Assembly: GCA_005882295.1 (NCBI GenBank)
Contig: VBAI01000011.1
Coordinates: 1,592-65,591, forward strand
Length of the DNA: 64,000 nucleotides
Source: Candidatus Segetimicrobium genomatis
Lineage (GTDB): Bacteria > Sysuimicrobiota > Sysuimicrobiia > Sysuimicrobiales > Kaftiobacteriaceae
Direction of reading: 5' to 3'
Shown in pieces: positions 10,115 through 56,020 of the stretch. Position numbers and translations under genes: made by a program. The notes below the pieces were generated by a model that had not been told where the DNA came from, did not search any database, and worked only from the letters and a program-made list of their open reading frames with translations. How positions within the stretch are numbered: the first letter of the stretch is position 1; every line of letters begins with the position of its first letter.

Positions 10115-10172
10115 CGGCGGGACTAGGGACTAGGGACTTGGGACTGGTTACGGCTCGGCATCCCTAGTCGCC
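10115..10172. repeat. Family A tandem heptamer arm (GGGACTAGGGACTAGGGACTTGGGACTGG) with a weak inverted partner
   Basis: Lies in the 8-bp gap region between the ABC-ATPase start and the CYTH-DNPH1 stop, overlapping the gene ends. Confidence 0.6.
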
Positions 10173-11151
10173 TCTCCAGTAGACTCATTAACTCTCCTTC
10201 ATCTCCATATCGGATGACGCGTAATCCGGGATTACCTTCAATCATCGCCGACAGTGCCACATCGGTCCGGCACAGACAGATGATGGACTTGCCGAGGTGC
10301 TGCGCGGTGGCGACTTCCACCCCCACACCCAGCGAGGGGATCGAGACCTCGGCGATCACCAGATCACACTCCAGGAGCCAGCGAATGTCACGCTCATAGA
10401 TCTGCGCGGCGTCGCCCCCTTCGCGCTGTTCCTCGGCAATGACATCCCGCGCGGCGACGTGGCTGGTCAGCACGTCATAGCCGCGCTGGGCGAGGAAGTC
10501 GACAATGCTCGCATACAGCGGCTGTAGGGATCTGCCGCCATGGATGGATCCGCAGAAGTACACCTTGCGCGCCGCGGGCCGCAGGTGTGCCGCCACGAGC
10601 GCAGCCACCGGCTCAGGGATCACCGCTTCCGCGGGCACGCCCAACGCGCCGAGTTTGCGGAGGATGGCCCCGGCCGCGGTGGCTGGATTCTGGCCCTCCA
10701 CTTCCAGCTCGCACATCCAGCCGATCCCGTCCACTTGCTCTGCGACCAGCTCGCCGACATCGGGGATGTCGTAGAAGAGGCCGGCTTTCTTGCGCACGAC
10801 TAACCAGGGGTCGTAGCCGAGCCCGGCGGCGAGGGTACGGCACTCGTCAGCGGAGCCGGCATAGAGGCGGACTTTCCCTTCGGGAAACCGTGACCGCTTG
10901 AACGAGAGTCCGTTGACCTGCACCACATCGGTCCAGGTCAGGAGCACTTCGCTGGGCTGCGCCGGGCGGTGGTGTTCGCGGACGCGCAGGGCCCGCGTGC
11001 GCGGGTCCCACGCGCCGCCGGGTGGCCGGTAGTAGTGATCGGTGAACGCGTACTCGAAGCGGACCCGGCCACCGAGTGTGGCGATGCGCCGGCGGAACGC
11101 CTCGACGTCGTCGATGAGGAAGCGGACTTCGCACTCGAAGGGAGCCGTCAT
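10123..11151 (-). CDS. CYTH (CyaB/ThTPase-like triphosphate tunnel) domain fused to a DNPH1/Rcl-like nucleoside 2-deoxyribosyltransferase-fold domain
   Basis: N-terminal MTAPFECEVRFLIDD...GGRVRFEYAFTDHYYRPPG matches the CyaB-like ExExK opening. The C-terminal YFCGSIHGGRS...DIRWLLECDLVIAEVSIPSLGVGVEVA...SAMIEGN closely parallels DNPH1 (YFCGSIRGGR...PSLGVGYELG...SAMIRGA). The ORF track starts at a TTG (11208) inside repeat F; ATG at 11151 is preferred. Confidence 0.7.
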   Translation of the reverse strand: MTAPFECEVRFLIDDVEAFRRRIATLGGRVRFEYAFTDHYYRPPGGAWDPRTRALRVREHHRPAQPSEVLLTWTDVVQVNGLSFKRSRFPEGKVRLYAGSADECRTLAAGLGYDPWLVVRKKAGLFYDIPDVGELVAEQVDGIGWMCELEVEGQNPATAAGAILRKLGALGVPAEAVIPEPVAALVAAHLRPAARKVYFCGSIHGGRSLQPLYASIVDFLAQRGYDVLTSHVAARDVIAEEQREGGDAAQIYERDIRWLLECDLVIAEVSIPSLGVGVEVATAQHLGKSIICLCRTDVALSAMIEGNPGLRVIRYGDEGELMSLLERRLGMPSRNQSQVPSP

Positions 11152-11164
11152 CTTCCACTCAAGT

Positions 11165-11262
11165 GGAGAGCGTCTCGGGAACGCGGGAACGGGGGAACGC
11201 GGGAACAACTGCTCACGTTGTCCGCTCGCGTTCCCGTGTTCCCGCGATCCCGCGTTCCCGTC
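11165..11262. repeat. Hairpin element family F (GGGAACGCGGGAACGGGGGAACGCGGGAAC ... GTTCCCGTGTTCCCGCGATCCCGCGTTCCCG)
   Basis: Tandem GGGAACG units with an inverted CGTTCCC arm. Sits between the acyl-CoA dehydrogenase stop and the CYTH-DNPH1 start. Confidence 0.8.
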
Positions 11263-18606: not shown

Positions 18607-18684
18607 AAGTCTACACAGTCTTCCCAGTCCCCCCAGTCTTCCCAGTCTACTTCGCGGACGAAACGTACTGAGACTGGGTAGACT
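18607..18684. repeat. Hairpin element family C
   Basis: gtctacacagtcttcccagtccccccagtcttcccagtctac ... gagactgggtagac. Confidence 0.8.
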
Positions 18685-19873
18685 ATGGTTTGACACCTAG
18701 TACACGATGCACCTCAGCACGGAGCGACGCCAGCGCGTCATGTACCTGCTCGGGAGGGACGGCGCCCTGGGCGAAGGCCGGGCGTCCTCCGCCCCGGCCG
18801 CCCAGCGGCTCAAGGGCGCGGCGTAGTAGGGCGGCGGCATCCAGATCCAGGTCCGATGATCTGGCGACTATCACGCGCCCGTCGGAGGTGGCGAGTGCGG
18901 CGATGGTGGAGCCGGCAGCCGCGAGCCGGCCCGCCAGCGCCGACGTCATCTCCGCCGACCACCCGGGCAGCACCTCGGTCACAATCCTGGGCGTGCCCGG
19001 AAGGTTTTCGAGCCGGCGCTGCGCTTCGAGTTCCACCAGCTGATCGCGCAGGCCGGCCAGCGTGCGGTCGCGTTCGCGGAGTTGCCCCATGAGCCGCTCC
19101 ACCGCCTCGGCGACCTCTTGATCCTTCACGCTGAGCTTCACCGCGAGATCGCGTACCAGCGCGTTCTTCCACCGGGAGTCGCGGAGGGCGCGCCATCCGC
19201 ACAAGAACTCCACGCGCATCCCTCCCTTGAAGCGCTCCCACCGCCGGAGCCGCACCGCCCCGATCTCGCCCGTGCGACGCACGTGGGTCCCACCGCACGC
19301 TGAACGGTCAAACTCCTCGACGTCGACCACCCGGATGCGGCCTCGCTTCTTGGCCGGGCGGCGCAGCCCCAGGCTCGAAAGCTCCGCCTCGTCGACCTCG
19401 TAGACCAGCACCGGCCGGTCCTCGAAGACAATGCGGTTGGCGAGATCCTCCACCTGCGCCGCGGCCGCGGCGGAGAGGTCGGCGAGATCCAGATCCAGCG
19501 TGCAGAGTTCGGCCCCCAGGTGCACGGCACGCGTTTGCGCCTGCATCGCCTGGAGAAACGCCTGCGAGAGTATATGCTGACCGGTGTGTTGCTGCATGTG
19601 GTCGAATCGCCTCGGCCAGTCGATCGCGCCGGCCACGGCGCCTGTGAGCGGTGCGGAGACCAAGTGGAGCACGCGGTCCTCACCGTCTTCGATCACGTCC
19701 GTCACCGGTACCCCACTCAACGTACCGGTATCGTGCGGCTGGCCGCCGGACGTCGGATAGAAGGCGGTGCGGTCGAGGATCACCGCCAGCCGGTCGCCAT
19801 GGGGCTCCGACGCGAGCACGGTCGCCTCGAACTGCGTGAGGTAGCTATCAGCGTAGTACAGCCGCTCTGTCAC
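18683..19873 (-). CDS. alaX: Alanyl-tRNA editing protein AlaX-L (AlaRS editing-domain homolog)
   Basis: HTGQHIL and CGGTHV zinc-binding motifs. 396 aa. Confidence 0.8.
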   Translation of the reverse strand: MTERLYYADSYLTQFEATVLASEPHGDRLAVILDRTAFYPTSGGQPHDTGTLSGVPVTDVIEDGEDRVLHLVSAPLTGAVAGAIDWPRRFDHMQQHTGQHILSQAFLQAMQAQTRAVHLGAELCTLDLDLADLSAAAAAQVEDLANRIVFEDRPVLVYEVDEAELSSLGLRRPAKKRGRIRVVDVEEFDRSACGGTHVRRTGEIGAVRLRRWERFKGGMRVEFLCGWRALRDSRWKNALVRDLAVKLSVKDQEVAEAVERLMGQLRERDRTLAGLRDQLVELEAQRRLENLPGTPRIVTEVLPGWSAEMTSALAGRLAAAGSTIAALATSDGRVIVARSSDLDLDAAALLRRALEPLGGRGGGRPAFAQGAVPPEQVHDALASLRAEVHRVLGVKP

Positions 19874-21269: not shown

Positions 21270-21275
21270 ACTATT

Positions 21276-21352
21276 CTGTCATTGCGAGCCCGCAGGGCGA
21301 AGCAATCTCCTCCAACGGGAGATCGCCACGGGGCTTCGCCCCTCGCGATGAC
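21276..21352. repeat. Hairpin element family I (GTCATTGCGAGC...GAAGCAATCTCC..GGAGATCGC...GCGATGAC)
   Basis: gtcattgcgagcccgcagggcgaagcaatctcctccaacgggagatcgccacggggcttcgcccctcgcgatgac. Relatives at 26083-26285 and 33119-33191. Confidence 0.8.
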
Positions 21353-21384
21353 TGCATACTCTCTTGCTCCCGCGTTCCCGTCCG

Positions 21385-22989: not shown

Positions 22990-23085
22990 CTGCGGGACTG
23001 GGGACCAGGGACTAGGGACTGGAAAGAGCACCGACTGCTGTGGGTGGTTACCAGTCCCCAGTCCCAAGTCCCTAGTCCCGCAGTT
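22990..23085. repeat. Hairpin element family A
   Basis: aactgcgggactggggaccagggactagggactgg ... ccagtccccagtcccaagtccctagtcccgcagtt. Confidence 0.85.
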
Positions 23086-23089
23086 TCAT

Positions 23090-24523
23090 TTATCGCATTG
23101 CCTGCCCCACCTGCTGCACGAACGAGATCACCCGCCCCGGAAAGATCCCCAACACCACCACGCCGGCAGAGGCCGTCACTAAGGCCGCCGTCACCCAGCG
23201 GCCGCCGGCGAATCCCACGTCCTCGTGAGGCTGCCCGGTGAACATCGTGTAGGCCACCCGCAGGTAGTAATAGGCGGATACGACGCTGGTCAACACGCCG
23301 GTCACCACCACGCCAATCTGCCCGGCATCGAGCGCCGCGGTGAACACGTAGAACTTCGCCAGGAACCCTGCTGTGGGAGGCAGCCCGGCCAGGGACACCA
23401 TGAACAGCGCCATGGCCCCGCCCAGCGCCGGCGCGCGCCACGCCACGCCGGTCAGGTCGGCGATCTGATCCGCCTCTTCGCCGCGCCGGTGCAGCATCAG
23501 CACGACGGCAAACGCGCCGAGCGTCATGAACGTGTAGGCCAGCAGATAGAAGGCGACCGCGGACGCGCCCGACGGAGTGCCGGCGACGACACCGGTCAGG
23601 ATGAAACCGGCGTGCGCGATGCTGGAGTAGGCCAGCAGCCGCTTGATGCTCGTCTGCCGCAGCGCCGCGACGTTCCCCACGATCATGGTCAGGACGCTGA
23701 TTGCGGCCAGGAGCGTGCTCCACTCCCCAGCCTGCGCCGCCAGGGCCACCACGTAGACCCGCAGGAACGCCGCGAACGCCCCCACCTTCGCGATGACCGA
23801 CATGTAGGCGGTTGCGGGCAGCGGCGCGCCCTCGTACACGTCCGGCGCCCAGAAGTGGAAGGGGACCACAGCGGCTTTGAAGGCCAGGCCAATCGTGAGC
23901 AGCGCGAGCCCGGCCTGAAAGATGACCGCCGGCGTGCGCGCGTGCTCCGCGAGCGCGCGATACCCCGTCGATCCAGTGGCGCCAAACAGCAGCGCAATCC
24001 CGTACAGGAAGAACGCGGTCCCGAAGGCACCCAGGAGGAAATACTTCAGACCCGCCTCCTGCGAGCGCAGATCGGTGCGGGCAAACGCCGCGAGCACGTA
24101 GAGAGGGATCGACAGGGTTTCCAGACCCAGGAACAGCATGATCAGATCGCTGCTCGCCGCCATCAGCATCGCCCCAAGCGCGGCGACCAGCATCAGGGCA
24201 TAGTACTCACCGGCCTCCAGTCCCGTCCGCTCCACGTACTCTCCCGACAGCCACTGCGCGAGGAGCACCGCCAGCAAGGCGGTCGCCTGTATCACCCGAG
24301 TCAGCGCGTCGCGCACATACATGCCGGCAAACGCTGGCGTTGGATCGGCGCCCGCCGTCAGCGTTGTCCCCAACGCCGCCAGGGTACCCACCGCGGCCAG
24401 CCATCGCAGCAGATGCTGACGACCGGCCGGTAGAAATAGTCCGGCGAGCATGACCGCCACAGCCGTCGCGGTCACAACTAGCTCGGGGACCAGCAGGCGC
24501 AGGTCGACCGCAGGTGGCGTCAT
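23090..24523 (-). CDS. nuoN: NADH-quinone oxidoreductase subunit N
   Basis: Polytopic antiporter-like subunit. Start MTPPAVDL at 24523 overlaps the nuoM stop (ATGA). The ORF-track start at 24772 is rejected. Confidence 0.9.
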   Translation of the reverse strand: MTPPAVDLRLLVPELVVTATAVAVMLAGLFLPAGRQHLLRWLAAVGTLAALGTTLTAGADPTPAFAGMYVRDALTRVIQATALLAVLLAQWLSGEYVERTGLEAGEYYALMLVAALGAMLMAASSDLIMLFLGLETLSIPLYVLAAFARTDLRSQEAGLKYFLLGAFGTAFFLYGIALLFGATGSTGYRALAEHARTPAVIFQAGLALLTIGLAFKAAVVPFHFWAPDVYEGAPLPATAYMSVIAKVGAFAAFLRVYVVALAAQAGEWSTLLAAISVLTMIVGNVAALRQTSIKRLLAYSSIAHAGFILTGVVAGTPSGASAVAFYLLAYTFMTLGAFAVVLMLHRRGEEADQIADLTGVAWRAPALGGAMALFMVSLAGLPPTAGFLAKFYVFTAALDAGQIGVVVTGVLTSVVSAYYYLRVAYTMFTGQPHEDVGFAGGRWVTAALVTASAGVVVLGIFPGRVISFVQQVGQAMR

Positions 24524-26061
24524 CGATCGTGACTCGTGACTCGTGACTCGTGACTCGCTAGATGCGCAGCATTTCCGCGTTCCCGCACGTCTTGCACCAG
24601 TGCGCGCACCGAGGCTTCGCTCCGCCTCAGCAGCGGTGAGGGGTATACGCCAATCCAGAAGATCAACGCGATCAGGGGGATGAACAACCACTGCTCGCGG
24701 CGGGTGAGGTCGGTCATTCGTGCCCGTTCCTTCACCGCGACCGGTCCCTGCATCACGCGCTGATACATCCACAACAGGTACACGGCCGAGAGAATCACGC
24801 CGCTGGTGGCCAGGGCGGCATAGACCGGGTTCGCCCGAAACGTCCCCAATAAGATGAGGAACTCGCCGACAAACCCGTTGGTCCCCGGCAGCGCCAGCGA
24901 CGACAGCACCACGATGAGGGCCAGCGGCGCCAGGCGCGGCATCAGCGCCGCCACGCCGCCGTAGTCACCGAGCAGGCGGGAGTGGGTACGGTCGTAGAGG
25001 ACGCCGACGATCAAGAACAGCCCGCCGGTGCTGATGCCGTGGTTGACCATTTGGAGCAGGCTGCCCTGCATCGCCGGCACAGTCATGACAAACACGCCAA
25101 GCGTCACCAGCCCGAGGTGGCTGACGCTGCTCATCGCCACCAGCCGCTTGACGTCAGGCTGGGCCCACGACACGATTCCCCCGTAGATGATCCCGAGGAT
25201 GGCCAGCGCAGAGAGCAGCGGCGCGAACTGCAGCGTCGCCTGCGGGAACAGCGGGAGCAGGAAACGCAGGAACCCATACGTGCCCATCTTCAGGAGCACG
25301 GCCGCCAGCACCACGCTGCCGGCTGTCGGCGCCTCGACGTGAGCGTCGGGCAGCCACGTGTGCAGGGGCCAGACCGGCACCTTGATAGCAAACGCCAGCG
25401 CAAACGCGCCAAAGAGCCAGGCCTGCAGGGGCATCGCCACCCGCAGTTGCCTCAACTGGGCCAGATCAAACGTCCGCGCGCCCAGTGATGGGCCGCTGTG
25501 GAGATACAGCGTGATGATCGCCACCAGCATCAGCGCGCTGCCGGTCATCGTATAAAGGATGAACTTGACCGCCGCATACGAACGGCGCGGCCCGCCCCAC
25601 AGCCCGATGATGAAGTACATCGGGATGAGGACGGCCTCCCAGAAGACGTAGAACAGCACGAGATCAGCGGCCAGAAACGTGCCCAGCAGCGCCGTCTCCA
25701 GGACGAGCATGCTGAACACGAACTCCTTGATGCGCTCGGCGATCGAACCCCAGGCTGACAGCAGCGCGAGCGGCATGATGACCGCGGTCAGCATCACCAG
25801 CGGCAGGGAGATCCCGTCAACGCCGATGTGGTAGCTCACTCCGGCCGAGGGGATCCATGCCATCCGCTCCACAAACTGCAGCGCGGCCTGATCAGGATCG
25901 AAGCGGACGAACACAACGGCCGCCAGTGCGAGCGCCGCCAGCGATCCCGCCAGCCCAACACCGTAGAGGGCACCGGTCTTCTTGCGGTCGATCGCCGCGA
26001 CCACGATCGCCGCGGCGAGCGGCAGGAAGATCAGGATGGTCATCATCGGCAAACCCATCAT
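24520..26061 (-). CDS. nuoM: NADH-quinone oxidoreductase subunit M
   Basis: Antiporter-like subunit. Start uncertain: MMGLPMMTILIF at 26061 or 26046. The ORF-track start at 26175 lies in repeat I. The C-terminal tail SHESRVTSHDR is encoded by a TCGTGAC heptamer tandem at 24524-24552. Confidence 0.85.
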   Translation of the reverse strand: MMGLPMMTILIFLPLAAAIVVAAIDRKKTGALYGVGLAGSLAALALAAVVFVRFDPDQAALQFVERMAWIPSAGVSYHIGVDGISLPLVMLTAVIMPLALLSAWGSIAERIKEFVFSMLVLETALLGTFLAADLVLFYVFWEAVLIPMYFIIGLWGGPRRSYAAVKFILYTMTGSALMLVAIITLYLHSGPSLGARTFDLAQLRQLRVAMPLQAWLFGAFALAFAIKVPVWPLHTWLPDAHVEAPTAGSVVLAAVLLKMGTYGFLRFLLPLFPQATLQFAPLLSALAILGIIYGGIVSWAQPDVKRLVAMSSVSHLGLVTLGVFVMTVPAMQGSLLQMVNHGISTGGLFLIVGVLYDRTHSRLLGDYGGVAALMPRLAPLALIVVLSSLALPGTNGFVGEFLILLGTFRANPVYAALATSGVILSAVYLLWMYQRVMQGPVAVKERARMTDLTRREQWLFIPLIALIFWIGVYPSPLLRRSEASVRALVQDVRERGNAAHLASHESRVTSHDR

Positions 26062-26082: not shown

Positions 26083-26285
26083 AGCGCCGAAGGCGCGTGG
26101 CGATCCGCGAAGCGTTGCGAGCGCAGCATTGCCGGGGTCCCCGCAAATTCGCAGTCCAAATTTGCGGGGTGGCAAGCAATCTCATCTCGATAGGAGGTTG
26201 CCACGGCCCTGCGGGCCTCGCAACGACGCCTGCGGCGTCGCTTCGTCGCTTCGCTCCTCGCAATGACTGCGGTTCGCTCATCTAA
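26083..26285. repeat. Composite family I element with a nested palindrome
   Basis: tcatcgcgagcgccgaag ... ccccgcaaattcgcagtccaaatttgcgggg ... cgcttcgtcgcttcgctcctcgcaatgac. Lies between nuoM and nuoL inside the operon. Confidence 0.75.
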
Positions 26286-29502: not shown

Positions 29503-29520
29503 CGACGCGCACCGGAACTA

Positions 29521-29612
29521 CGTCTACTTGGTCTACTTAGTCTTCTTAGTCTACTTGGTCTAAGAGATCTACAGAATCAACGCTCTCTGGAGCAGGTAGA
29601 CCAAGTAGACGC
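29521..29612. repeat. Hairpin element family D (inside the nuo operon, between nuoI and nuoH)
   Basis: cgtctacttggtctacttagtcttcttagtctacttggtc ... ggtagaccaagtagacg. Confidence 0.8.
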
Positions 29613-29616
29613 CGTT

Positions 29617-30600
29617 TCATGTTCCCCGCAAGACGACAATCACCGCCGTCACCACCAGATTGAGCAGCCCAAGGGGGATAAGCACTTTCCATCCCAGGGC
29701 CATGAGCTGATCGTGCCTGACCCGGGGGAGCGTGGCCCGCAGCCAGATGAAGACAAACACGAAGGCCAGGGTCTTCAACACGAACCAGACCGGCCCCGGC
29801 AGCACCGGCCCCCACCAGCCGCCCCAGAACAGCGTCGTCAGCAGCGCGCTCATCGTGACGATGGCGACGTACTCGCCGATGTAGAACATCGCGAACTTGA
29901 AGCCGCCGTACTCGGTCTGGTAGCCAGCGATGAGCTCCTGTTCGGCCTCCGGCAGGTCGAACGGTGCGCGATTGGTCTCTGCCACCGCCGCGATGAGAAA
30001 GATGAGAAAGCCCAAGGGCTGGAGCGCTACGAACCATACGCGCCGCTGGGCCTCCACGATGGAGACCAGGCTCAATGAACCGGCGGTCAGCACCACGGAG
30101 ATCACGGCCAGCCCCAGGGCCAGCTCATAACTGATCAGTTGGGCGCTGCTGCGCAGACTGCCGAGCAGCGAGTATTTATTGTTCGACGACCATCCCCCCA
30201 GAATGATGCCGTACACGCCGACCGAGGAGGTGGCCAGGACCAACAGGATACCAACATTGACGTCGGCCAGCCGCAACGGGACACGCTGCCCGAACAGCAT
30301 CACCTCAGGCCCAAACGGAATCACCGCATACACGAAGAGAGCGGTGACCATCGAAATCGCCGGCGCCAGCCAGTACACGATCACGTCGACATGCGCGGGC
30401 ATGAAACTTTCCTTAAAGACGAGTTTGAGCCCGTCCGCCAGCGGCTGCAGCAGGCCGAACGGACCCACGCGGTTGGGACCATACCGGACTTGAAACTTGC
30501 CCAGCAGACGGCGCTCCAGCAGCGTCATGTACGCGCAGGCCGTCAGCAGAATGAACAGGAGCAGCGCGCTCTTCACCGCGACGATGGCGATCTCGATCAC
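29617..30600 (-). CDS. nuoH: NADH-quinone oxidoreductase subunit H
   Basis: N-terminus ...LLERRLLGKFQVRYGPNRVGPFGLLQPLADGLKL. Overlaps the nuoG stop (ATGA). Confidence 0.9.
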   Translation of the reverse strand: MIEIAIVAVKSALLLFILLTACAYMTLLERRLLGKFQVRYGPNRVGPFGLLQPLADGLKLVFKESFMPAHVDVIVYWLAPAISMVTALFVYAVIPFGPEVMLFGQRVPLRLADVNVGILLVLATSSVGVYGIILGGWSSNNKYSLLGSLRSSAQLISYELALGLAVISVVLTAGSLSLVSIVEAQRRVWFVALQPLGFLIFLIAAVAETNRAPFDLPEAEQELIAGYQTEYGGFKFAMFYIGEYVAIVTMSALLTTLFWGGWWGPVLPGPVWFVLKTLAFVFVFIWLRATLPRVRHDQLMALGWKVLIPLGLLNLVVTAVIVVLRGT

Positions 30601-33107
30601 AGCGGGCCGCCGCCCTCCTTGCGTCCCTCGGCGCCCCCGGCGACGGGGGCCAGGGCCGTCACCCGCACCCGCGTCAACGGCTCAGTCAGATCGACCAGCG
30701 CATTGGCGGGCGCGGCATCAAAACCCCGCGGCAGGAAGACCTGGCCCGGGAGGACGGCCGGTGAGAGCTTCGCCCGCACCGCCACCGACCCGCGGCGCGA
30801 TCGCACCACCGTGGCGTCGCCTTCACCGATCCCGCATCGCGCGGCGTCCTCGGGGTGAAACAGCGCCCAGGGCTCGCCGGCCAGGTCGGCGATCGCCGTG
30901 CTGCGCGAGGTCATCGCGCCCCGGTCGAACAGGACGTCCCCGAGCACGAGGATGAGGGGAAAGTCGGTGTCGGCGCCGTCGACAGGTCGGGCTTCTTGGA
31001 TCCTCGATCCCGGATCCTGGATCCTGGATCCCTGTCGCGGTACCCGGGCATCGATCTCCAGTCCGGGGATGAGAGATCGCATCTCGTCGAAGATTTCCTC
31101 CCAGCCGCTGTACGCGATCACCTTGCCCATCCGCTCGGCGAGCGCCGCGAAGATCCCCCAATCGGCCCGCGACTCACCAGGACCCGGGACGGCCGCGCGC
31201 AATCGCTGGACGCGGCCCTCGATGTTGCACACCGTGCCGTCTTTCTCCGGCGCCACCAGCGCCGGCAGCACCACATCGGCCATCTGCGCGGTCTGTGTCA
31301 GAAACGCGTCCTGGACCACCAGAAATGGCAGCCGCCCCCGCGCCTCAGTCCACCGCGTGCGGTCAGGGGCGTCGGTCCCCGGATCGGCGCCGGCCACGTA
31401 AAGGACGTCCAGCCTGCCCTGCCCTGCGGCCTCGATGATCTCCGGCGCGTTCCATCCCGCAGCGTCGCTCGGGGCAGCGCCCCAGAGCGACTCGAGATCG
31501 TGCCTGACCTCCGCCAGCGGGCGGCCACCGGGACCGGCATCAGGCAGCAGTCCGGCCAGCGCCGCCCCGAATGCGTTCCCTTTGCCGCGCATGACGTTCA
31601 CGGAGGTGTGGAGCCTGGCCGCGAGCTCACGCAGGAGCCCGTAGATCTCGGCGCCGTCAGGGGCGTCGAGCGCCCCGCGGCCGATGAGAATCTGCGGTCG
31701 TGCGGCGCGGGCCAGGCGCGCGCCCGCCGCGGTTATCGCGTCCCGGAGCACGCCGCCGGTCTCCCCCGCACCGTTTGGGGCGCCGGACATCGCCTCCAGC
31801 AATGCGCGCACTACCTGCGCGCCAGATCCGTAGCGGTGCACCAGGTGGTGGGCAATGAACCGATCAATCTCCAGCCCTTTCGGGGTGACGGCGATCATCG
31901 CCGCGCCGCGATCGAGCGCCCGCTTCATCCGCAGCCAGATGACCGGATACTCCTCGGTGATATCGCACCCCACAAGGACGATCACATCGGCGTCATTCAT
32001 GTCCGCAAGAGAGGATGTCATTCCCCACGGCGCGAGCAGGCTGGCGCCTCCCGGCGGCGCGTCGGTGCGGTGATCCAGGTGATTCGTGCCAACCACGCTG
32101 CGGAAGAACCGCCCGGCCACGTAGGCGTCCTCGTTGGCCAGGCGCGTCCCGCCGAGCATCGCCACCCGGCCCGGAGCGGCGGCACGCAGCCGGCGCGCCA
32201 CGACGTCCAGCGCTTCGTCCCACGTGGCTTCGCCCAACCCGCCCCCGCGGCGGATCAGCGGGGTGCGCAGGCGATCCTGGTGGTGCACGTAGGTGTGACC
32301 GAAAAATCCGAGGTCGCACAGCCAGATGTCGTTCACGGCCGGGGATTCGCGCGCGCGGGTGCGGGTGATGGCGCCGTCGCGCACATCGAACTCCAGGGCG
32401 CAGCCGACGCCGCACAGCGTGCACACGCTGGCCACCGGCTGATTGTCCCATGGCCGGGCGGCGAACCGATACGTCTTGGCCGTCAGCGCGCCCACGGGGC
32501 AGATGGCGATGGTGTTGCCGATAAACTTCGACTTCACCGGCAAAGTGAACGGCGTGTTTACCTCGCTGTGGAATCCCCGCTCAAACCCTTTCAACGCGTC
32601 GTCGCCGGCGATCAGCTCGCCGAACCGCACGCACCGCCAGCACAGGATGCACCGCTCCCGATCGAGCACCAGCACACGGCCCAGGGAGACCGGCTTGGCG
32701 AAGTCGCGTTTGGTCTCGACGAAGCGGCTGCGGCCGGGGCCGTACTGATAGGCCTGGTCCTGCAGCGGGCATTCGCCGCCCTTGTCGCAGATGGGACAGT
32801 CCAGCGGATGATTGATGAGCAAGAACTCCAGGATGGCTTCCTGTCCGGCTTTGACTTCGGGGGTGGTCGTGAAGACGGTCATGCCATCTGTCGCCTCCAG
32901 GGTGCAGGAGGTCTGGAGTTTCGGCATTTTTTCGACCTTGACCAGACACATCCGGCACGCCCCCAGCGGGGGCATGCGGTCGTGGTAGCAGAAGATGGGG
33001 ATCTCGATGCCGGACCGCCGGGCGGCGTTGTAGACGGTCGTCCCCTTCGGCACGGAGACCGTCCGCCCGTCGATGGTCAGCGTGATCGTTGGTGGAAGCT
33101 GGCTCAT
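30597..33107 (-). CDS. nuoG: NADH-quinone oxidoreductase subunit G (75 kDa Fe-S/molybdopterin-like)
   Basis: Start MSQLPPTITLTIDG at 33107; the ORF-track start at 33206 runs through repeat I. N-terminal 2Fe-2S and 4Fe-4S cysteine clusters. Contains an in-frame oligomer-repeat insert at 30998-31034. Confidence 0.9.
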   Translation of the reverse strand: MSQLPPTITLTIDGRTVSVPKGTTVYNAARRSGIEIPIFCYHDRMPPLGACRMCLVKVEKMPKLQTSCTLEATDGMTVFTTTPEVKAGQEAILEFLLINHPLDCPICDKGGECPLQDQAYQYGPGRSRFVETKRDFAKPVSLGRVLVLDRERCILCWRCVRFGELIAGDDALKGFERGFHSEVNTPFTLPVKSKFIGNTIAICPVGALTAKTYRFAARPWDNQPVASVCTLCGVGCALEFDVRDGAITRTRARESPAVNDIWLCDLGFFGHTYVHHQDRLRTPLIRRGGGLGEATWDEALDVVARRLRAAAPGRVAMLGGTRLANEDAYVAGRFFRSVVGTNHLDHRTDAPPGGASLLAPWGMTSSLADMNDADVIVLVGCDITEEYPVIWLRMKRALDRGAAMIAVTPKGLEIDRFIAHHLVHRYGSGAQVVRALLEAMSGAPNGAGETGGVLRDAITAAGARLARAARPQILIGRGALDAPDGAEIYGLLRELAARLHTSVNVMRGKGNAFGAALAGLLPDAGPGGRPLAEVRHDLESLWGAAPSDAAGWNAPEIIEAAGQGRLDVLYVAGADPGTDAPDRTRWTEARGRLPFLVVQDAFLTQTAQMADVVLPALVAPEKDGTVCNIEGRVQRLRAAVPGPGESRADWGIFAALAERMGKVIAYSGWEEIFDEMRSLIPGLEIDARVPRQGSRIQDPGSRIQEARPVDGADTDFPLILVLGDVLFDRGAMTSRSTAIADLAGEPWALFHPEDAARCGIGEGDATVVRSRRGSVAVRAKLSPAVLPGQVFLPRGFDAAPANALVDLTEPLTRVRVTALAPVAGGAEGRKEGGGPL
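30998..31034. repeat. In-frame tandem GGATCCTG-type repeat inside nuoG (encodes DPGSRIQDPGSRIQ)
   Basis: ggatcctcgatcccggatcctggatcctggatccctg. Confidence 0.7.
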
Positions 33108-33118
33108 AGATTCTCCGA

Positions 33119-33191
33119 TGTCATCGCGAGCGCAGCGAAGCGATCTCCTTGGACGAGGAGATTGCTTCGTCGCTTCGCTCCTCGCAATGAC
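33119..33191. repeat. Hairpin element family I (between nuoEF and nuoG)
   Basis: gtcatcgcgagcgcagcgaagcgatctccttggacgaggagattgcttcgtcgcttcgctcctcgcaatgac, an almost perfect palindrome. Confidence 0.85.
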
Positions 33192-33206
33192 AGAAAAGTC
33201 CTTCAA

Positions 33207-35015
33207 TCACGCCAATGCCTCAACATCACAGCGCCCTGTCTTGACATGGTGTTCATACTCCTGGCGGAAGAAACGCAAGGTCGAATAGATCGTGGGAGGC
33301 ACGCTCTCGCCCAGCGGGCAGAAACAGGTCCCCGTCATCCCCCGCGCGATGCCATCCAGCAGCGGCAGGTCCTCCACCCGCCCGCGGCCGGCCAGGATGC
33401 GGTGCAACGCCTCCCCCAACCACATCGTCCCTTCGCGGCAGGGCGTGCACTTGCCGCACGACTCGTCGCGGTAGAACTCCACGGTGCGCGAAGCGACCTC
33501 CAGCATGCAGGTGGTGTCGTCCATCACGATCAGCGCGCCCGACCCCAGCATCGATCCGTAGACATCGAGTTTGGCCAGCGCGTCGTAATCCATCGGCGTG
33601 TCCAGGTAGGCGGCGGGCAAGACGGCCGATGACGACCCGCCGGGAAAGCACGCCTTGAACGACCGGCCGGCACGCATCCCTCCAGCCCGGTCGATCACCT
33701 GCCGGATGGTGGTCCCCAGCGGCACCTCATACACGCCAGGATGCGCCACGTGTCCGCTGACGGAGATGAGAACCGGGGGCCCTTGCTGGCGGTACCACTC
33801 GGCACCCTTGGCGAGAATCCACGCCACGTGACACAGCGTCTCGACGTTGTTGACCACCGTGGGCTGCATGTACAGACCCTTGACCGCGGGGTAGTAGGGC
33901 GGCTTCAAGCGCGGCATCGCCCGGCGGCCCTCAAGCGACTCCAGCAGCGCGGTCTCTTCGCCGGCGATGTACGCGCCGGCGCCGGTGCCCAGCACGATGG
34001 TGAGATCGTACCCGCTGCCGGCAATGTTACGGCCCACCAGCCCCGCGGCAGTGGCCTGCGCCAGCACCCGGTCCAGCAGCGCCCGCGCCCGGTAGAACTC
34101 CCGCCGCAGGTAAACAAACGCCAGGTGCGCGCCGACGGCGTAGCTAGCGATGACGATTCCCTCGATGAGCCGGTGCGGGTCGCTTTCCAGCAGCGTGCGA
34201 TCTTTGAAGGTCCCGGGCTCGCCTTCGTCGGCGTTGATGACGACGTATTTGGTGACCGCGGGATCTTTGGGGATAAACTTCCACTTGCGCCCGGTGGCGA
34301 ACCCGGCGCCGCCGCGACCCCGCAGGCCGGATTTGTCCACCTCGTCGATCACGGCCTCCGGCGACATGGACAGCGCCCGCCGCAGCCCCGCGTAGCCCCC
34401 GCGCGCGGTATATGCCTCCAACTCGCCCTGATCCGGTTCGTGGAGATACTTGAGCAGAACAGGCTCGCCCGAAGAAGATTGTTGGGCCTCGGGCTTCGGG
34501 CTTTGCTGAACTACCGGGCTCCGGGCTTCGGGCCCTGGGCTTCGGTAGCGGCTGAGAATTTCACCGATGCTCTCTGGGGTAACCAGGCCGAACCGCTCAG
34601 TGCCCACCATCACGGCCGGCGCAGCCTCGCACGCGGCGAGACATTCCGCCGTCTTGAGGGTGAACGCGCCGTCCGGGGTCGTCTCCCCCACCTCGACTCC
34701 GAGTTGCCGCCGCAGCTGGTCGAGGATCCGGCCGCAGCCGTTGAGCATGCAGGCGATATTCGTGCAGACCTGCACGAGGTGCCGGCCGACCGGGCGGAAG
34801 AAGAGGAGATGGTAGAACGATGCCACCGAGGCGACCTCGCTGACCGGCAGGTCCATCACCGCCGCGAGGTCGGCCAGCGCATCGGCGGTCAGGTACCCCG
34901 CCTCGTCTTGCGCCACAAACAATGCCCCCAGCAGCGCCGACTGGCGGTGCGGAAACTGCGCCATCAGACGGCGGATCTCCACTTTTGCGTTTTCGGAGAG
35001 ACCGTTCTCGCTCAT
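33207..35015 (-). CDS. nuoEF: Fused NADH-quinone oxidoreductase subunits E (24 kDa, 2Fe-2S) and F (51 kDa, FMN/NADH-binding, 4Fe-4S)
   Basis: NuoE-like N-terminal ~160 aa (...CTNIACMLNGCGRIL...ECLAACEAAPA). Then a Pro/Gln/Ser linker. Then NuoF (GLRGRGGAGFATGRKW, SGYDLTIVLGTGAGAYIAGEETALLESLEG, CGKCTPCREG). The linker DNA is an oligomer-repeat hairpin (34486-34546). Confidence 0.85.
   Translation of the reverse strand: MSENGLSENAKVEIRRLMAQFPHRQSALLGALFVAQDEAGYLTADALADLAAVMDLPVSEVASVASFYHLLFFRPVGRHLVQVCTNIACMLNGCGRILDQLRRQLGVEVGETTPDGAFTLKTAECLAACEAAPAVMVGTERFGLVTPESIGEILSRYRSPGPEARSPVVQQSPKPEAQQSSSGEPVLLKYLHEPDQGELEAYTARGGYAGLRRALSMSPEAVIDEVDKSGLRGRGGAGFATGRKWKFIPKDPAVTKYVVINADEGEPGTFKDRTLLESDPHRLIEGIVIASYAVGAHLAFVYLRREFYRARALLDRVLAQATAAGLVGRNIAGSGYDLTIVLGTGAGAYIAGEETALLESLEGRRAMPRLKPPYYPAVKGLYMQPTVVNNVETLCHVAWILAKGAEWYRQQGPPVLISVSGHVAHPGVYEVPLGTTIRQVIDRAGGMRAGRSFKACFPGGSSSAVLPAAYLDTPMDYDALAKLDVYGSMLGSGALIVMDDTTCMLEVASRTVEFYRDESCGKCTPCREGTMWLGEALHRILAGRGRVEDLPLLDGIARGMTGTCFCPLGESVPPTIYSTLRFFRQEYEHHVKTGRCDVEALA
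34486..34546. repeat. GGGCTTCGGGC-type repeat hairpin forming the in-frame nuoE-nuoF linker
   Basis: cgcccgaagaag...ggcctcgggcttcgggctttgctgaactaccgggctccgggcttcgggccctgggcttcgg. Related oligomer at 41287-41314 (intergenic). Confidence 0.65.
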
Positions 35016-35023
35016 ATGCGAAG

Positions 35024-35105
35024 GGCGGGACTGGGGACTGGGGACTGGAGACTGGACATAACGGTGGCCCCACCAGTCCCTAGTCCCAAGTCCCTAGTCC
35101 CGTAG
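35024..35105. repeat. Hairpin element family A (between nuoD and nuoEF)
   Basis: gcgggactggggactggggactggagactgg ... ccagtccctagtcccaagtccctagtcccg. Confidence 0.85.
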
Positions 35106-35109
35106 TTCG

Positions 35110-37840: not shown

Positions 37841-39040
37841 CTATCGCCCGCTCCGCTGCGCAGCACGCTGCGGCACGGCGCGGCGCGGACGGCCTGCTGA
37901 GGCGGCGCGCAGATTCTCGATGACCTCAGGGACGACCGTCAGCAATTGATCAACGTCCTCGTCCGTATTCCAGCGTCCCAGGGTCAGGCGGATGGTGCCG
38001 GCCGCGATCTCCGGCGGCAGGCCGATGGCACTGAGCACGTGGGAGGGTTCCAGGCTGCCCGAGGTGCAGGCCGACCCGCTGCTCGCGGCCACACCCTGAA
38101 AGTCGAGCGCCAGCAGGATGGATTCGCTGTCGGCTCCTTCAAACGAAAGGTTCACGTTCCCGGGCAACCGCTCGACGGGATGCCCATTCAGGTGCGCGCC
38201 GTCGAGGCGGACGAGCCCCTGGATGAGGCGGTCCCGCAGCCGGCGCAGGCGGACCGCTTCCTCGTGCATGCACTCCATGGCGATGCGGATCGCCACCCCA
38301 AATCCTACGATCGCCGGCACGTTCTCCGTCCCCGCCCGGCGGTTGCGCTCATGCGATCCGCCATGCTGGATGCGCGCCACGTTGGATCCCTTGCGAACGT
38401 ACAGCGCGCCGACGCCCTTGGGGCCATAGCGCTTGTGCGCCGACATCGACAGCAGGTCGACGCTCAGCGCGTCCACGTGAACCGGGAGCAGGCCCACCGA
38501 TTGTGTGGCGTCGGTATGCATCAGAATTCCGCCCTCACGCGCGAGACGGCCAATCTCGGCCACGGGCTCCAGCGTACCGATCTCATTGTTAGCGTGCATC
38601 ACGGAGATCAGCACGGTGTCGGGGCGAATGGCCGCGCGCACGTCGTCCGGATCCACGCGGCCATCACGGTCCACGGGAAGGTATGTCACATCAAATCCAC
38701 GGGACTGTAAGAACCGAAGGGGTTCCAGCACCGCGTGGTGCTCAACCGGCGAAGCGATGAGATGCCGGCCCCGCGCCTCGTTCGCCCACGCCGCCCCGAG
38801 CACGGCAAAGTTATCCGCCTCGGTGGCGCCGCTGGTAAATACGATTTCGGCCGGGCTCGCCCCGAGGGCCGACGCGATCACCTCGCGCGACCGGTCCACT
38901 GCCGCCCGCGCGTCTTGCCCGAACTGGTGGATGCTGCTGGCGTTGCCGAACTGCTCGGTGAAGAACGGCAGCATCGCCTCCACCACTCGCGGGTCGGTGG
39001 GCGTGGTGGCGCCGTGATCGACGTATATGCGCGTATCCAT
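37841..39040 (-). CDS. iscS: Cysteine desulfurase (IscS/NifS family)
   Basis: [15 protein letters not shown]-terminus, [15 protein letters not shown]-lysine, and SGSACTSGS active-site cysteine loop. Confidence 0.85.
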
Positions 39041-40975: not shown

Positions 40976-41318
40976 CCCACCTTTTGACAACTCCGAGGCG
41001 CCTCCTATGGGCACGGTGAAAGCACGGTACCTGGTACCCGGACGAGAGGCGAACGACCGGTCGGCGCAGGCCCTGGGGCCATATCCCCAAATTATCCACA
41101 AGATGTTGATATCTGAGGCAGGAGTTTGCCACCTGGCGGGGAATAAGCGTAAGGACCTGCAGGGGGGAGGAGCCTTCGAGTCTGCTCTTGGACGCCTCCA
41201 CGACAGGCTCCCCACTAGGCAACGCATGGACACCACTCCTCCTTCGCCCGCACCTCCTCCCTGAGGTCGCTTTATCTTCACAGACGGGCATCGGGCTTCG
41301 GGCTCCGGCCTCGACAGA

Positions 41319-44375: not shown

Positions 44376-44412
44376 CTGCGGAATTAGGGATCCGGGATTA
44401 GGGATCAGAATA

Positions 44413-45057
44413 ATGCGCGTTGCAAAACGAGTACGGCGCTGCGCGTGGGCGGACCATAGTCCATTGATGCGCGCGTATCACGATCGGGAGTGGGGGAATC
44501 CCCGGCACAGCGACCGGGTGCTCTTTGAGTTTCTGATCCTCGAGGGGATGCAGGCCGGGCTGAGCTGGGACACCATTCTGCGGAAGCGGAACAACTTTCG
44601 CCGCGCGTTCTCGCGATTTGATCCCAGGCGGGTCGCGCGCTACGCCTCAGGCGATATCCGGCGGCTGATGACCGACGCGGGCATTATCCGCAACCGCGCC
44701 AAGATCCTGGCGGCGATTGCCAACGCCCGGGCGTTCCTGGAGGTGGTGGGCGAGTTCGGATCGTTCAATAGATACATCTGGGGCTTCGTGGACGGCCGCC
44801 CGCTACTGAACCGGCGCCGTACCCTGGCCCAGATCCCCGCGGAAAGCCCGGTCTCCGTGGCCATGAGCGCAGACCTGCGGCGCCGTGGGTTTCGCTTCGT
44901 GGGCCCGACCATTTGCTACGCGTTCATGCAGGCCGTGGGCATGGTGAACGACCATACCGTCGGGTGCTTCCGCCGCGCCCAACTCCTGAAAGCTACCCCA
45001 CGACCTACGCAACCTACACGAACTACACAATCTACACAATCACCTGCAAAGACCTGA
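44413..45057 (+). CDS. tag: DNA-3-methyladenine glycosylase I
   Basis: YHDREWGNP and FEFLILEGMQAGLSW signatures. The C-terminal ~20 aa (PRPTQPTRTTQSTQSPAKT) is encoded by repeat family B. Confidence 0.85.
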   Translation: MRVAKRVRRCAWADHSPLMRAYHDREWGNPRHSDRVLFEFLILEGMQAGLSWDTILRKRNNFRRAFSRFDPRRVARYASGDIRRLMTDAGIIRNRAKILAAIANARAFLEVVGEFGSFNRYIWGFVDGRPLLNRRRTLAQIPAESPVSVAMSADLRRRGFRFVGPTICYAFMQAVGMVNDHTVGCFRRAQLLKATPRPTQPTRTTQSTQSPAKT

Positions 45058-45133
45058 CAAGCTGTCCTGCAGATTGTGCCCCTGATCTTGTCGTTTGTGT
45101 AGATTGTGTAGGTTATGTAGGTTGTGTAGATTG
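44995..45133. repeat. Hairpin element family B
   Basis: cgacctacgcaacctacacgaactacacaatctacacaatcacctgca ... gtttgtgtagattgtgtaggttatgtaggttgtgtagattg. Confidence 0.8.
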
Positions 45134-54724: not shown

Positions 54725-54826
54725 GTGCAGTCTATGATACCCTACGCCCTCAGCGGATTCCACCACAGCACGGGACCAATTTAAGAAGTTTATTTTCACT
54801 GATCTAGATGACTTCGGCAGGGACGC

Positions 54827-54882
54827 AGTCGCGCTGTCGCGTAGTCGCGTTATCGCGTCGTCGCGTTATCGCGTTGTCGCGG
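54827..54882. repeat. Seven direct tandem 8-mers (GTCGCGCT GTCGCGTA GTCGCGTT ATCGCGTC GTCGCGTT ATCGCGTT GTCGCGGG) with no inverted partner
   Basis: In the divergent gap between the helicase and the sarcosine-oxidase-like gene. Confidence 0.8.
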
Positions 54883-54889
54883 GTAACTG

Positions 54890-56020
54890 ATGCCGACCGC
54901 GGACGTCATTGTGCTGGGCCTGGGCGCCATGGGGAGTGCTGCCGCCTACCATCTGGCGCGGCGGGGCGTGCGCGTGGCGGGCATCGAGCAGTACACGCCA
55001 GCGCACGACCGGGGTTCGTCGCACGGCCGGTCCCGCATCATCCGGGAAGCCTACTTTGAACACCCCGACTACGTCCCGTTGATTCAGCGGGCCTACGAAT
55101 TGTGGCGGGGGCTGGAGCAGGAGACCAGAGAACGCCTCCTCATCATGACCGGTGGCCTGATGATTGGGCCGCACGAGGGCGTGCTGGTCCAGGGGGCGCT
55201 CGCCAGCGCGCGCACCCACCGTCTTCCGCACGAACTCATCAGCGCGGAGGAAGTGCAACGGCGATTCCCGCCGTTCCGGTTGCCGCCATCGACGGTGGCC
55301 GTGCAGGAACCCAACGCGGGGGTGCTGTTCCCCGAAGCCTGCGTCCGGGCCCACCTGGATGGCGCCGCAGCGGCGGGCGCGGCGTTGCATTTTGAGGAAG
55401 CTGTCCGGCGGTGGAGCGCGTCTGTGGATCGGGTGGAAGTAACCACGTCACGGGCGACATACACGGCGGGGCGCCTGGTCGTTACCGCCGGTCCCTGGGC
55501 CCCAGCGGTGCTGCGCGAGCTCGGTTTGCCCCTACAGGTTGAGCGCAACGTGATGTACTGGTTTGCGCCGCTGCGCAACGGGCAGGCGTTTGCTCCGGAC
55601 CGCTTTCCCATCTACATCTGTGAGTACCGGAAGGACGCCTTCTTCTACGGCTTCCCCGCCCTCCCGGACGGCAGTGTAAAAGTCGCCCACCACCACAGCG
55701 GCCAGTGGTGCACACCCGACACCATCCGGCGGGAGGTGGGCCCAGACGAGGTGGACCGCATGCGGGCCCTGCTGGCCGGCCACCTGCCGGATGCCGGCGG
55801 GGAGCTCCAGCAGACGGCGACGTGCATGTACACCAATACCCCTGACGGCCACTTCCTCATCGACCGGCACCCGCAGTGGGGCACCGTCACCATCGCCTGC
55901 GGCTTCTCAGGGCACGGCTTCAAGTTCGCGTCGGTAGTCGGTGAGGTGCTGGCGGACCTGGCCCTTGACGGCCGCACGCGCCACCGGATCGCCCTGTTCA
56001 GGCTGGCCCGGTTTTCCTAA
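54890..56020 (+). CDS. Monomeric sarcosine oxidase / N-methyltryptophan oxidase family FAD enzyme
   Basis: N-terminal VIVLGLGAMGSAAAY FAD fold. CGFSGHGFKF region (covalent-FAD cysteine context). 376 aa. Confidence 0.8.
   Translation: MPTADVIVLGLGAMGSAAAYHLARRGVRVAGIEQYTPAHDRGSSHGRSRIIREAYFEHPDYVPLIQRAYELWRGLEQETRERLLIMTGGLMIGPHEGVLVQGALASARTHRLPHELISAEEVQRRFPPFRLPPSTVAVQEPNAGVLFPEACVRAHLDGAAAAGAALHFEEAVRRWSASVDRVEVTTSRATYTAGRLVVTAGPWAPAVLRELGLPLQVERNVMYWFAPLRNGQAFAPDRFPIYICEYRKDAFFYGFPALPDGSVKVAHHHSGQWCTPDTIRREVGPDEVDRMRALLAGHLPDAGGELQQTATCMYTNTPDGHFLIDRHPQWGTVTIACGFSGHGFKFASVVGEVLADLALDGRTRHRIALFRLARFS

Follow-up and report, generated by a model that had tools for sequence, protein, structure and literature searches.

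When short tandem repeats run into the end of a gene, has the protein gained something useful, or does it simply tolerate the DNA that borders it? The question is raised by nuoM of Candidatus Segetimicrobium genomatis, an uncultured soil bacterium of the phylum Candidatus Sysuimicrobiota (formerly CSP1-3), in which the last codons consist of heptamer repeats that lead straight into nuoN. Cluster members identical to its NuoG and Tag carry this species name, and the records also have them as 'Bacillati bacterium ANGP1'. We examined a stretch of 64,000 nucleotides from its contig VBAI01000011.1 (65.7% GC), referred to below as the window, which holds the nuo operon on the minus strand and, further along, tag. 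A sequence-only reading of this DNA had claimed that tandem oligomers were recruited into nuoM, nuoG and tag. Orthologue comparisons at all three genes confirm that repeats remodel protein termini and linkers in this genome. Recruitment is another matter: the translated arrays are probably tolerated read-through of a repeat class that hugs stop codons, young and lineage-specific, rather than functional acquisitions. This view is built on the arrays themselves, on open reading frames (ORFs) that continue through them, on their lineage specificity and turnover, and on their position outside conserved folds.

Arrays inside genes and next to stop codons

The nuoM repeat is a perfect array of the heptamer GAGTCAC (Table 1), and the 21-mer made of three such units has an expectation of 0.00 in 100 shuffles. 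The NuoM ORF ends in ...HLASHESRVTSHDR, with the array encoding the last ~11 residues, ASHESRVTSH(DR); the peptides predicted across the array junction are ...GNAAHLASHESR and VTSHDR. At the DNA level the junction reads (GAGTCAC)x4.4-GATCG-ATGA, and both Tandem Repeats Finder (TRF) and the ORF bear out the earlier claim that a repeat-encoded tail runs into the ATGA overlap with nuoN. The array is a single arm without a nearby inverted partner, and its RNA is unstructured (z = +1.4). Alignments to most solved NuoM/ND4 homologues end at or just past ...VRALVQD; the one exception is the Paracoccus chain, whose own tail is about as long and whose alignment extends to ...AAHLASH. The repeat residues are thus placed outside the conserved fold.

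In NuoG an imperfect array with a palindromic GGATCC core encodes, in frame, QGSRIQDPGSRIQ within an inter-domain linker (peptide RQGSRIQDPGSRIQ; predicted junction peptide ...QGSRIQDPGSR). It is flanked by LIPGLEIDARVP and DFPLILVLGDVLFDRG, forms a weak hairpin (z -2.0), and occupies a region, between the Molybdopterin and Molydop_binding domains, that solved homologues leave unaligned; the stretch varies in sequence and length across 60 of 60 aligned relatives. The earlier reading had the peptide right except for its first residues, which are RQ instead of DP, and took the unit for 8 nt where it is 7; its coordinates for the coding arrays were correct to within a few bases.

The Tag ORF ends in ...PRPTQPTRTTQSTQSPAKT and, as had been proposed, a repeat arm encodes its C-terminal tail: the left arm of a hairpin of tandem 9-mers. 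The element spans 135 bp, with a minimum free energy (MFE) of -58.8 kcal/mol and z = -6.95; the tag stop codon (45055-45057) lies inside its loop, and the predicted junction peptides are ATPRPTQPTR and TTQSTQSPAK. An array of 14-nt period, (CGGAATTAGGGATC)x2, made of ATTAGGG-type heptamers, lies at 44379-44406, 6 nt upstream of the tag start, and tag thus has arrays on both flanks.

Two further coding sites had been missed. NuoE and NuoF form a single fusion protein of 602 aa, whose linker RSPGPEARSPVVQQSPKPEAQQ carries two arrays in frame (predicted linker peptide SPGPEAR), and the last residues and stop of ORF 10123-11151 are formed by an (AGTCCCN)n array of which the partner arm is a mere remnant, near 10160. 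The (CGGGCTT)n array at 41285-41308 was considered as a sixth coding site and rejected, since it lies upstream of the real start of the NUDIX gene and is therefore intergenic. We looked for a stop or frameshift ahead of the repeats in the NuoM, NuoG and Tag ORFs and found none; we also looked for similar tails that lack the DNA repeat, and the orthologues with similar tails carry the repeat as well.

Table 1. Coordinates of the arrays, genes and hairpins in the window, and array content of the relatives at the corresponding sites (nt positions in the window unless another contig is named)
Feature	Position	Strand	Details
(GAGTCAC)x4.4 perfect heptamer array	24527..24557	-	TRF: period 7, 4.4 copies, 100% matches
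nuoM CDS (coding sequence), 513 aa	24520..26061	-	
nuoN CDS, start MTPPAVDLRLL	23090..24523	-	start codon 6 nt past array
ATGA stop/start overlap	24520..24523	-	nuoM TGA 24520-24522, nuoN ATG 24521-24523
(GGATCCA)x5 imperfect array, palindromic GGATCC core	30994..31031	-	TRF: period 7, 5 copies, 84-85% matches
nuoG CDS, 836 aa	30597..33107	-	P0121 100% identical over 836 aa
Two (GAAGCCC)n arrays, NuoE-NuoF fusion linker	34482..34545	-	in frame
tag (DNA-3-methyladenine glycosylase I) CDS, 214 aa	44413..45057	+	last 19 aa repeat-encoded
9-mer hairpin CTACACAAN/TTGTGTAGN	44999..45133	+	left arm 44999-45041 coding, right arm 45089-45133
(AGTCCCN)x3.9 array	10119..10145	-	last ~8 aa NQSQVPSP and TAG stop of ORF 10123-11151
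GGGACTN/NAGTCCC non-coding hairpin	35016..35109	-	exactly fills gap from nuoD stop to nuoEF start
Palindromic element	33118-33192		partial copy 26240-26267; related copy 21274-21355; L081 9906-9991
L083, 93% NuoM identity			(GAAGCCC)x4 + (GAGTCAC)x3 ahead of nuoN start
L085, 87% NuoM identity			(CAGTCAC)x4-5 ahead of nuoN start
L081, 83% NuoM identity			one GGTCACG ahead of nuoN start
L084, 77% NuoM identity			(CGGGAACG)x4 + ~7 GAGTCAC-type units ahead of nuoN start
L001, 74% NuoM identity			repeat-free; NuoM ends ...VQRVQVEVRR; Shine-Dalgarno sequence (GGAGGTG) before nuoN
L210 (ERZ27315254 k141_3064569), same 90% NuoG cluster			(GGGGTCA)x4-loop-(GACCCCC)x4 complete hairpin in frame, nuoG codons ~690-720
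L209, 86% NuoG identity			degenerate form of window's (GGATCCA)n array in linker
L081, 75% NuoG identity			(GGAGCCC)x3 + GAAGCCC in linker
L001, 68% NuoG identity			linker repeat-free

The coding oligomers belong to the same DNA-level families as those of the intergenic hairpins, in agreement with the earlier reading. We count 31 arrays in the window with a period of 7-9 and no fewer than 3 copies, where 40 shuffles gave 0-4; together with the recurrence of such arrays in many independent assemblies, these counts reject chance and artefact as their source. The hairpin pairs counted number 17. About 20 hairpins occur in its 64 kb, with stems of tandem 7-, 8- or 9-mers of ~4 units each, lengths of 80-135 nt (one of 186 nt) and MFE values of -40 to -87 kcal/mol; their stems are imperfect, with the mismatch falling on the variable position of each unit. 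The unit families comprise GGGACTN, GTGATTN, CTACACAAN, CAGTCTNCC/GTCTACTTN, CGGGAACG, GGAAACG and CGTTGAAA, of which GGGACTN, CTACACAAN and GTGATTN, along with GTCTNC, are present at 2-6 loci apiece with 3-5 copies each. GAGTCAC itself has a single locus in the window; across the metagenome at least 120 contigs carry it in 3 or more copies, typically 3-5, at GC contents of 0.46-0.73, and about a quarter of these arrays have an inverted partner. Rfam gave no match anywhere in the window, and a scan with a terminator consensus flagged none of the hairpins as intrinsic terminators, the T-tract being absent. A consistent order of arms relative to gene direction was dropped as a sign of strand-specific function, given that an inverted repeat is identical on both strands.

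Most arrays are paired as hairpin arms directly 3' of stop codons and between cistrons, and genuine coding sequence holds only 6 of 42 arrays in a window whose coding share we roughly estimate at nearly 90%. With genes assigned from GC content at third codon positions, the offsets of the proximal arm from the stop codon ahead of it are +6, +1, -4, +3, -23, -9, +3, -1, +5, -38, +1, +3, +12, -59 and +9 nt. These values form one continuous distribution, whose negative side is made up of the coding overlaps, and the elements hug stop codons. The longest array in the window, (GTCGCGTT)x7 at 54824-54881, is single, has no hairpin pair, and sits in the divergent intergenic gap between ORFs 52475-54865 (minus strand) and 54887-56020 (plus strand).

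Turnover of the arrays among relatives

The prediction that the tails and linker would prove lineage-specific held: they are absent in more distant orthologues and variable among close relatives. At the nuoM-nuoN junction (Table 1) the NuoM tails of metagenome relatives vary in length and sequence, with ESRVTSH-type peptides in many of them; the nuo operon of L001, the closest species-level genome in the reference set, is wholly free of such repeats. Despite the differing array lengths, the first in-frame stop is the ATGA/TGATG junction in 5 of 5 relatives, and the ATGA overlap is kept in four relatives with differing array content. When copy number was varied in a simulation, only steps of +/-3 units kept the nuoM/nuoN overlap; -1 or +2 units gave ~100 residues in the wrong frame, and +1 or -2 units a NuoM-NuoN fusion. 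The preservation of frame in relatives argues that the NuoM array is translated and that selection acts on the frame and not on the peptide sequence, so that conservation of the junction indirectly supports the predicted translation through the array.

Within the species population, here the listed members of 90% clusters, 11 sequences (513-aa members) share the window-type NuoM tail without change, and 12 of 13 share the NuoG segment. Copy-number variation, which the earlier reading had suggested looking for, was therefore found in neither array (11 and 12 sequences), and arrays of 4-5 units are not hypermutable on that timescale. A phase-variable contingency locus was rejected on these grounds, and also because the genes concerned are housekeeping genes and the one frameshifted variant, P0373, is due to a deletion. 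This JGI contig of 5448 bp encodes a 605-aa NuoM in which a deletion further upstream puts the array into a different reading frame with its peptide family unchanged, as a 7-nt unit predicts, and ~100 residues continue into nuoN out of frame. P0373 may be a pseudogene-like allele; the alternative is an error of assembly.

Several other repeats were seen around nuoM and in the neighboring nuo genes. The VRERGN coding stretch at 24558-24600 of the window (GTGCGGGAACGCGGAAAT) holds ~1.6 copies of CGGGAACG, a unit that also builds the intergenic hairpin at 11174-11260, and L084 has 4 copies of it at the same position (1590-1625). L084 also carries (GAGTCAC)x4 at 71-98, 3 nt upstream of its nuoM ATG. 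L083 has an AACGCAG/CTGCGTT hairpin between nuoL and nuoM (350-450), where the window has the palindromic element described below, and (CCAGTCA)n in L085 (~445-470) enters the 5' end of the nuoJ call.

For NuoG, the claim of an in-frame tandem repeat stands; that of an insert does not, for the linker measures 47-56 aa in all relatives compared, repeat-free ones included, and the window array is thus a replacement in a length-constrained, hypervariable linker and not a net insertion. In L210 the site of the GGATCCA array is occupied by a whole hairpin (-52 kcal/mol, z = -3.2). The GARGCCC family, which would encode PEARSPK, is common to the window's NuoE-F linker, the L083 NuoM tail and the L081 NuoG linker.

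At Tag, the usual ending in the clade is ...CFRRAQLLRKR, and the 19-aa tail is restricted to the window and to relatives at least 95% identical. Among the listed members of the 90% clusters the tail recurs in more than 25 sequences, and four kinds of variant are met: P0398 has substitutions within units and P0411 a 4-aa deletion; P0243 (DNA in L087) leaves the array after three units and continues into the antisense of a convergent gene, and P0402 (DNA in L086) has no tail. In an 83% relative, L088, Tag ends ...AKLRIAN within a (GATTGCG)n heptamer array that supplies the stop. These variants indicate that the 3' end of tag has been re-tailed repeatedly. The C-terminal tail of a further Tag homologue (P0262), ARSGAAKQSP..., resembles a translated copy of the palindromic element.

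Whole hairpins come and go at operon junctions. Along 23 kb in which the window and L081 are collinear, the window has specific insertions of ~100 bp exactly where the L081 genes overlap or abut. Six junctions form such filled/empty pairs: nuoD-nuoEF (an ATGA overlap in L081, 1445-1448), nuoH-nuoI (window 29503-29636; TGATG in L081, 6721-6725), alaX-fpg and three others. At nuoD-nuoEF and nuoH-nuoI, ATGA stands on both sides of the hairpin, which may reflect a target-site duplication or selection for a stop and a start. The base of the nuoD-nuoEF stem pairs the region of the upstream stop with sequence just before the downstream ATG, bringing the two together, and no Shine-Dalgarno sequence is visible at this hairpin. 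The orthologous hairpin core between nuoN and fixC is built of GGGACT in the window (22994-23084), GGGACC in L081 (12941-13063) and GGGATC in L085 (6172-6262); the ~8 units of the two arms have all shifted together, with compensatory changes at 6 of the 30 pairs when the three sequences are compared. Hairpins of the 7-mer GGGACT and the 9-mer GTCTAC families share the outer end AACTACG (20395, 29516, 35101). The motif matches 6 times, including 3 hairpin ends, where 1.9 matches would be expected; the enrichment is weak, and we do not rely on it. Terminal inverted repeats at a size of 50-500 bp characterize the Tag hairpin (135 bp) and the intergenic hairpins; the NuoM array, as a single arm, and the NuoE-F arrays, as direct repeats, do not have them.

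A second repeat class, a non-tandem palindrome of ~75-85 bp with ends GTCATCGCGAG...CTCGCAATGAC, is found at nuoF-nuoG and nuoL-nuoM. It bears on the earlier claim that repeats had spuriously lengthened several N-termini, which we judged by the onset of homology in tblastn against relatives. The claim is sound for Fpg, where homology starts at residue 33 and the ORF extension spans the 18608-18690 hairpin, and for NUDIX, where the extension spans the 41285-41308 array. For nuoG the cause is a different element, as the 33-aa extension spans the palindrome at ~33118-33192; in nuoK and nuoC the extensions merely overlap the upstream gene in another frame. The nuoB ORF had no tblastn match, and TRF gave no clear 7-9-mer array there, finding a weak 10-mer (37858-37888) alone.

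Weighing the explanations

We infer from sequence how the arrays would have come to be translated, and that the resulting peptides would be neutral: (i) Arrays would arise and turn over in DNA, through slippage and homogenisation of units, through insertion or replacement of whole elements, or through both.

(ii) The ribosome would read through any array that came to lie upstream of a functional stop, or within a permissive linker between domains, provided that its orientation and frame were free of stops.

(iii) Heptamers would yield peptides of 7-residue period (ESRVTSH, GSRIQDP, PEARSPK) and nonamers peptides of 3-residue period (PTQ/TTQ/STQ). The NuoM tail, the NuoG segment, the Tag tail, the NuoE-F linker and the tail of ORF 10123-11151 would then be low-complexity read-through products, most likely neutral or tolerated.

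The period itself speaks for an origin in DNA, as selection on codons cannot yield a 7-nt unit. Amino-acid repeats generated at the codon level were rejected on the same count: they call for a unit divisible by 3, but the unit is 7 nt in NuoM, NuoG, NuoE-F and ORF 10123-11151, and only Tag (9 nt) has such a unit. The coding arrays also retain the ~4-unit size of the non-coding ones. Some observations weigh against tolerated read-through. Purifying selection on a useful peptide would likewise leave the NuoM and NuoG arrays invariant, and a GAGTCAC-type array recurs at nuoM-nuoN down to ~72% NuoM identity, possibly retained for a reason. On the origin of the arrays the hints diverge: the ACTACG...CGTAGT ends, flanking ATGA and filled/empty sites point to transposition; the single GGTCACG in L081 and CGGGAACGCGGAAA in the window fit in-situ slippage from seeds.

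A bolder possibility, which we consider unlikely, is that these genomes harbour a highly active and hitherto undescribed repeat system of Sysuimicrobiota, in which tandem 7-, 8- and 9-mer hairpins home to stop codons and stop/start overlaps, exact ATGA junctions of the complex I operon among them, give way to other unit families at the same site in close relatives, and keep their arms in concert. It draws on the three families met in the NuoG linker, the three or more at nuoM-nuoN and the two at the end of tag, and on the concerted GGGACT, GGGACC and GGGATC arms with their compensatory changes at nuoN-fixC. If true, it would point to a mechanism dedicated to targeting or homogenising the elements, or to a function at the RNA level (for instance translational coupling maintained across the inserted stems), and not to passive slippage.

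At the NuoM site, the main live alternative is a cis-acting role upstream of nuoN, as a leader that replaces the Shine-Dalgarno sequence or as a protein-binding site, with translation of the array incidental; we regard this as distinctly improbable. A gap of 6 nt separates the array from the nuoN ATG, with no Shine-Dalgarno sequence in view, at the place where repeat-free L001 has GGAGGTG; its unstructured RNA would suit an initiation region, and the array just upstream of nuoM in L084 would fit the same role, as would the many sense (GAGTCAC)n arrays that a metagenome scan finds shortly past a stop, with a long ORF beginning just beyond them. The TAACTGA repeats of Beggiatoaceae offer a precedent (MacGregor 2015, PMC4679880). 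Yet five relatives (L081, P0004, P0006, P0008 and P0010) have no array at the junction and still keep the ATGA overlap, the unit differs among relatives (GAGTCAC against CAGTCAC), no binding factor or rRNA complementarity was identified, and the NuoG and Tag sites are left uncovered.

Adaptive recruitment, under which arrays would have been selected for useful disordered tails or flexible linkers such as the PEARSPK-type NuoE-NuoF linker and the charged NuoM tail, seems to us very improbable. The arrays do sit where flexibility is acceptable or useful, in fusion and inter-domain linkers, the GARGCCC family occurs mainly in coding context within the window, the NuoM and NuoG arrays do not vary in 11-12 population sequences, and Borg elements (PMC9879509) supply a precedent. 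The peptides, however, lie outside conserved folds and are swapped in sister lineages, which carry unrelated peptides or none; the arrays have the size of non-coding ones; a heptamer period is hazardous in coding sequence; and the Tag tail is present or absent within one 90% cluster. The earlier word 'recruited' implies function and is not supported, as the position outside folds, the swaps and the array size fit tolerated read-through. That the tails are assembly or sequencing errors or mis-called ORFs, with the true proteins ending ahead of the repeats, we dismiss as extremely improbable: metagenome assembly can collapse or mis-join repeats, and P0373 is frameshifted at the junction, but identical ORFs recur on many contigs among the listed cluster members (11 NuoM, 12 NuoG and more than 25 Tag), no stop precedes any array, and the frame is kept in every relative.

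Tolerated read-through, if correct, means that in an abundant, uncultured soil phylum not even core genes of respiration and DNA repair are spared: turnover of non-coding repeats reshapes the ends and linkers of their proteins. For the annotation of metagenome-assembled genomes of Sysuimicrobiota, some repeat-derived C-terminal tails appear genuine from their ORFs, some N-terminal extensions are spurious, and some variants are frameshifted. Should site-specific, concerted hairpins at stop/start junctions prove real, they would offer a tractable system in which to study the origin and spread of heptamer-type repeats.

Relation to known repeat systems

Among the closest known counterparts of these arrays are the heptamer arrays described by Rehm et al. 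2015 (PMC4692102), GGGAATC in Xanthomonas and GGGGA(C/T)T in Nostoc, which prefer four units, are biased to intergenic positions within tens of nt of an upstream stop, have one variable position per unit, and differ in length between related species. Each genome holds 70-75 convergent inverted pairs capable of forming stem-loops, and 7-11% of the arrays partly overlap ORFs (PMC4692102). Heptanucleotide repeats are the commonest class of long simple sequence repeats (LSSR), according to Mrazek et al. 2007 as cited in PMC4679880. The window arrays resemble the LSSR/Rehm class in being head-to-tail, in forming dispersed families of ~4 units, in their proximity to stops and in their inverted pairs, and GGGACTN nearly matches the Nostoc unit. 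They depart from the Rehm class in having many families with periods of 7, 8 and 9 nt, mostly not G-rich (GAGTCAC, CTACACAAN, GTGATTN), in a roughly 10x density of ~20 hairpins per 64 kb, and in arrays that lie inside essential complex I genes. G3 tracts are absent from the GAGTCAC, GGATCCA and CTACACAAN arrays and present only in the GGGACTN family; as most units are not G-rich, the G-quadruplex rationale of the Rehm class does not apply here.

In marine Beggiatoaceae and in cyanobacteria, junctions between genes carry arrays of TAACTGA, often without a Shine-Dalgarno sequence (MacGregor 2015, PMC4679880). These arrays overlap upstream stops, and their stop-free 'reverse' forms are translated only peripherally, at the C-terminus of MurG and the N-terminus of a permease, from which it was concluded that insertions survive mainly at protein ends (PMC4679880). 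The window heptamers likewise sit at junctions, overlap stops and would be translated at the periphery of proteins, whereas the TAACTGA system is a single AT-rich family, mostly of direct arrays instead of hairpin pairs, and in one orientation its unit has a stop in every frame.

Rickettsia palindromic elements (Ogata et al. 2000) occur in frame in unrelated housekeeping genes at sites compatible with the fold (reviewed in PMC10969869). The Tag tail and the whole hairpin in the nuoG of L210 recall them. The Rickettsia elements are ~150 bp long and have a conserved encoded peptide, and they are not tandem oligomers; the NuoM array, in turn, is a single arm and no palindrome. Borg elements carry fast-evolving, recent tandem repeats both between and within ORFs, where they add low-complexity or disordered segments (PMC9879509). 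Coding-region repeats prefer 3n units, according to PMC4679880, and on that basis repeats within ORFs would be expected to have such units; the commonest coding units here are of 7 nt, and only steps of three units keep the frame.

The two main papers on CSP1-3/Sysuimicrobiota make no mention of repeats. The kind of repeat is already known; what is unusual is its density, the diversity of unit families, the presence of arrays and a hairpin inside complex I genes, and a turnover that is specific to the site.

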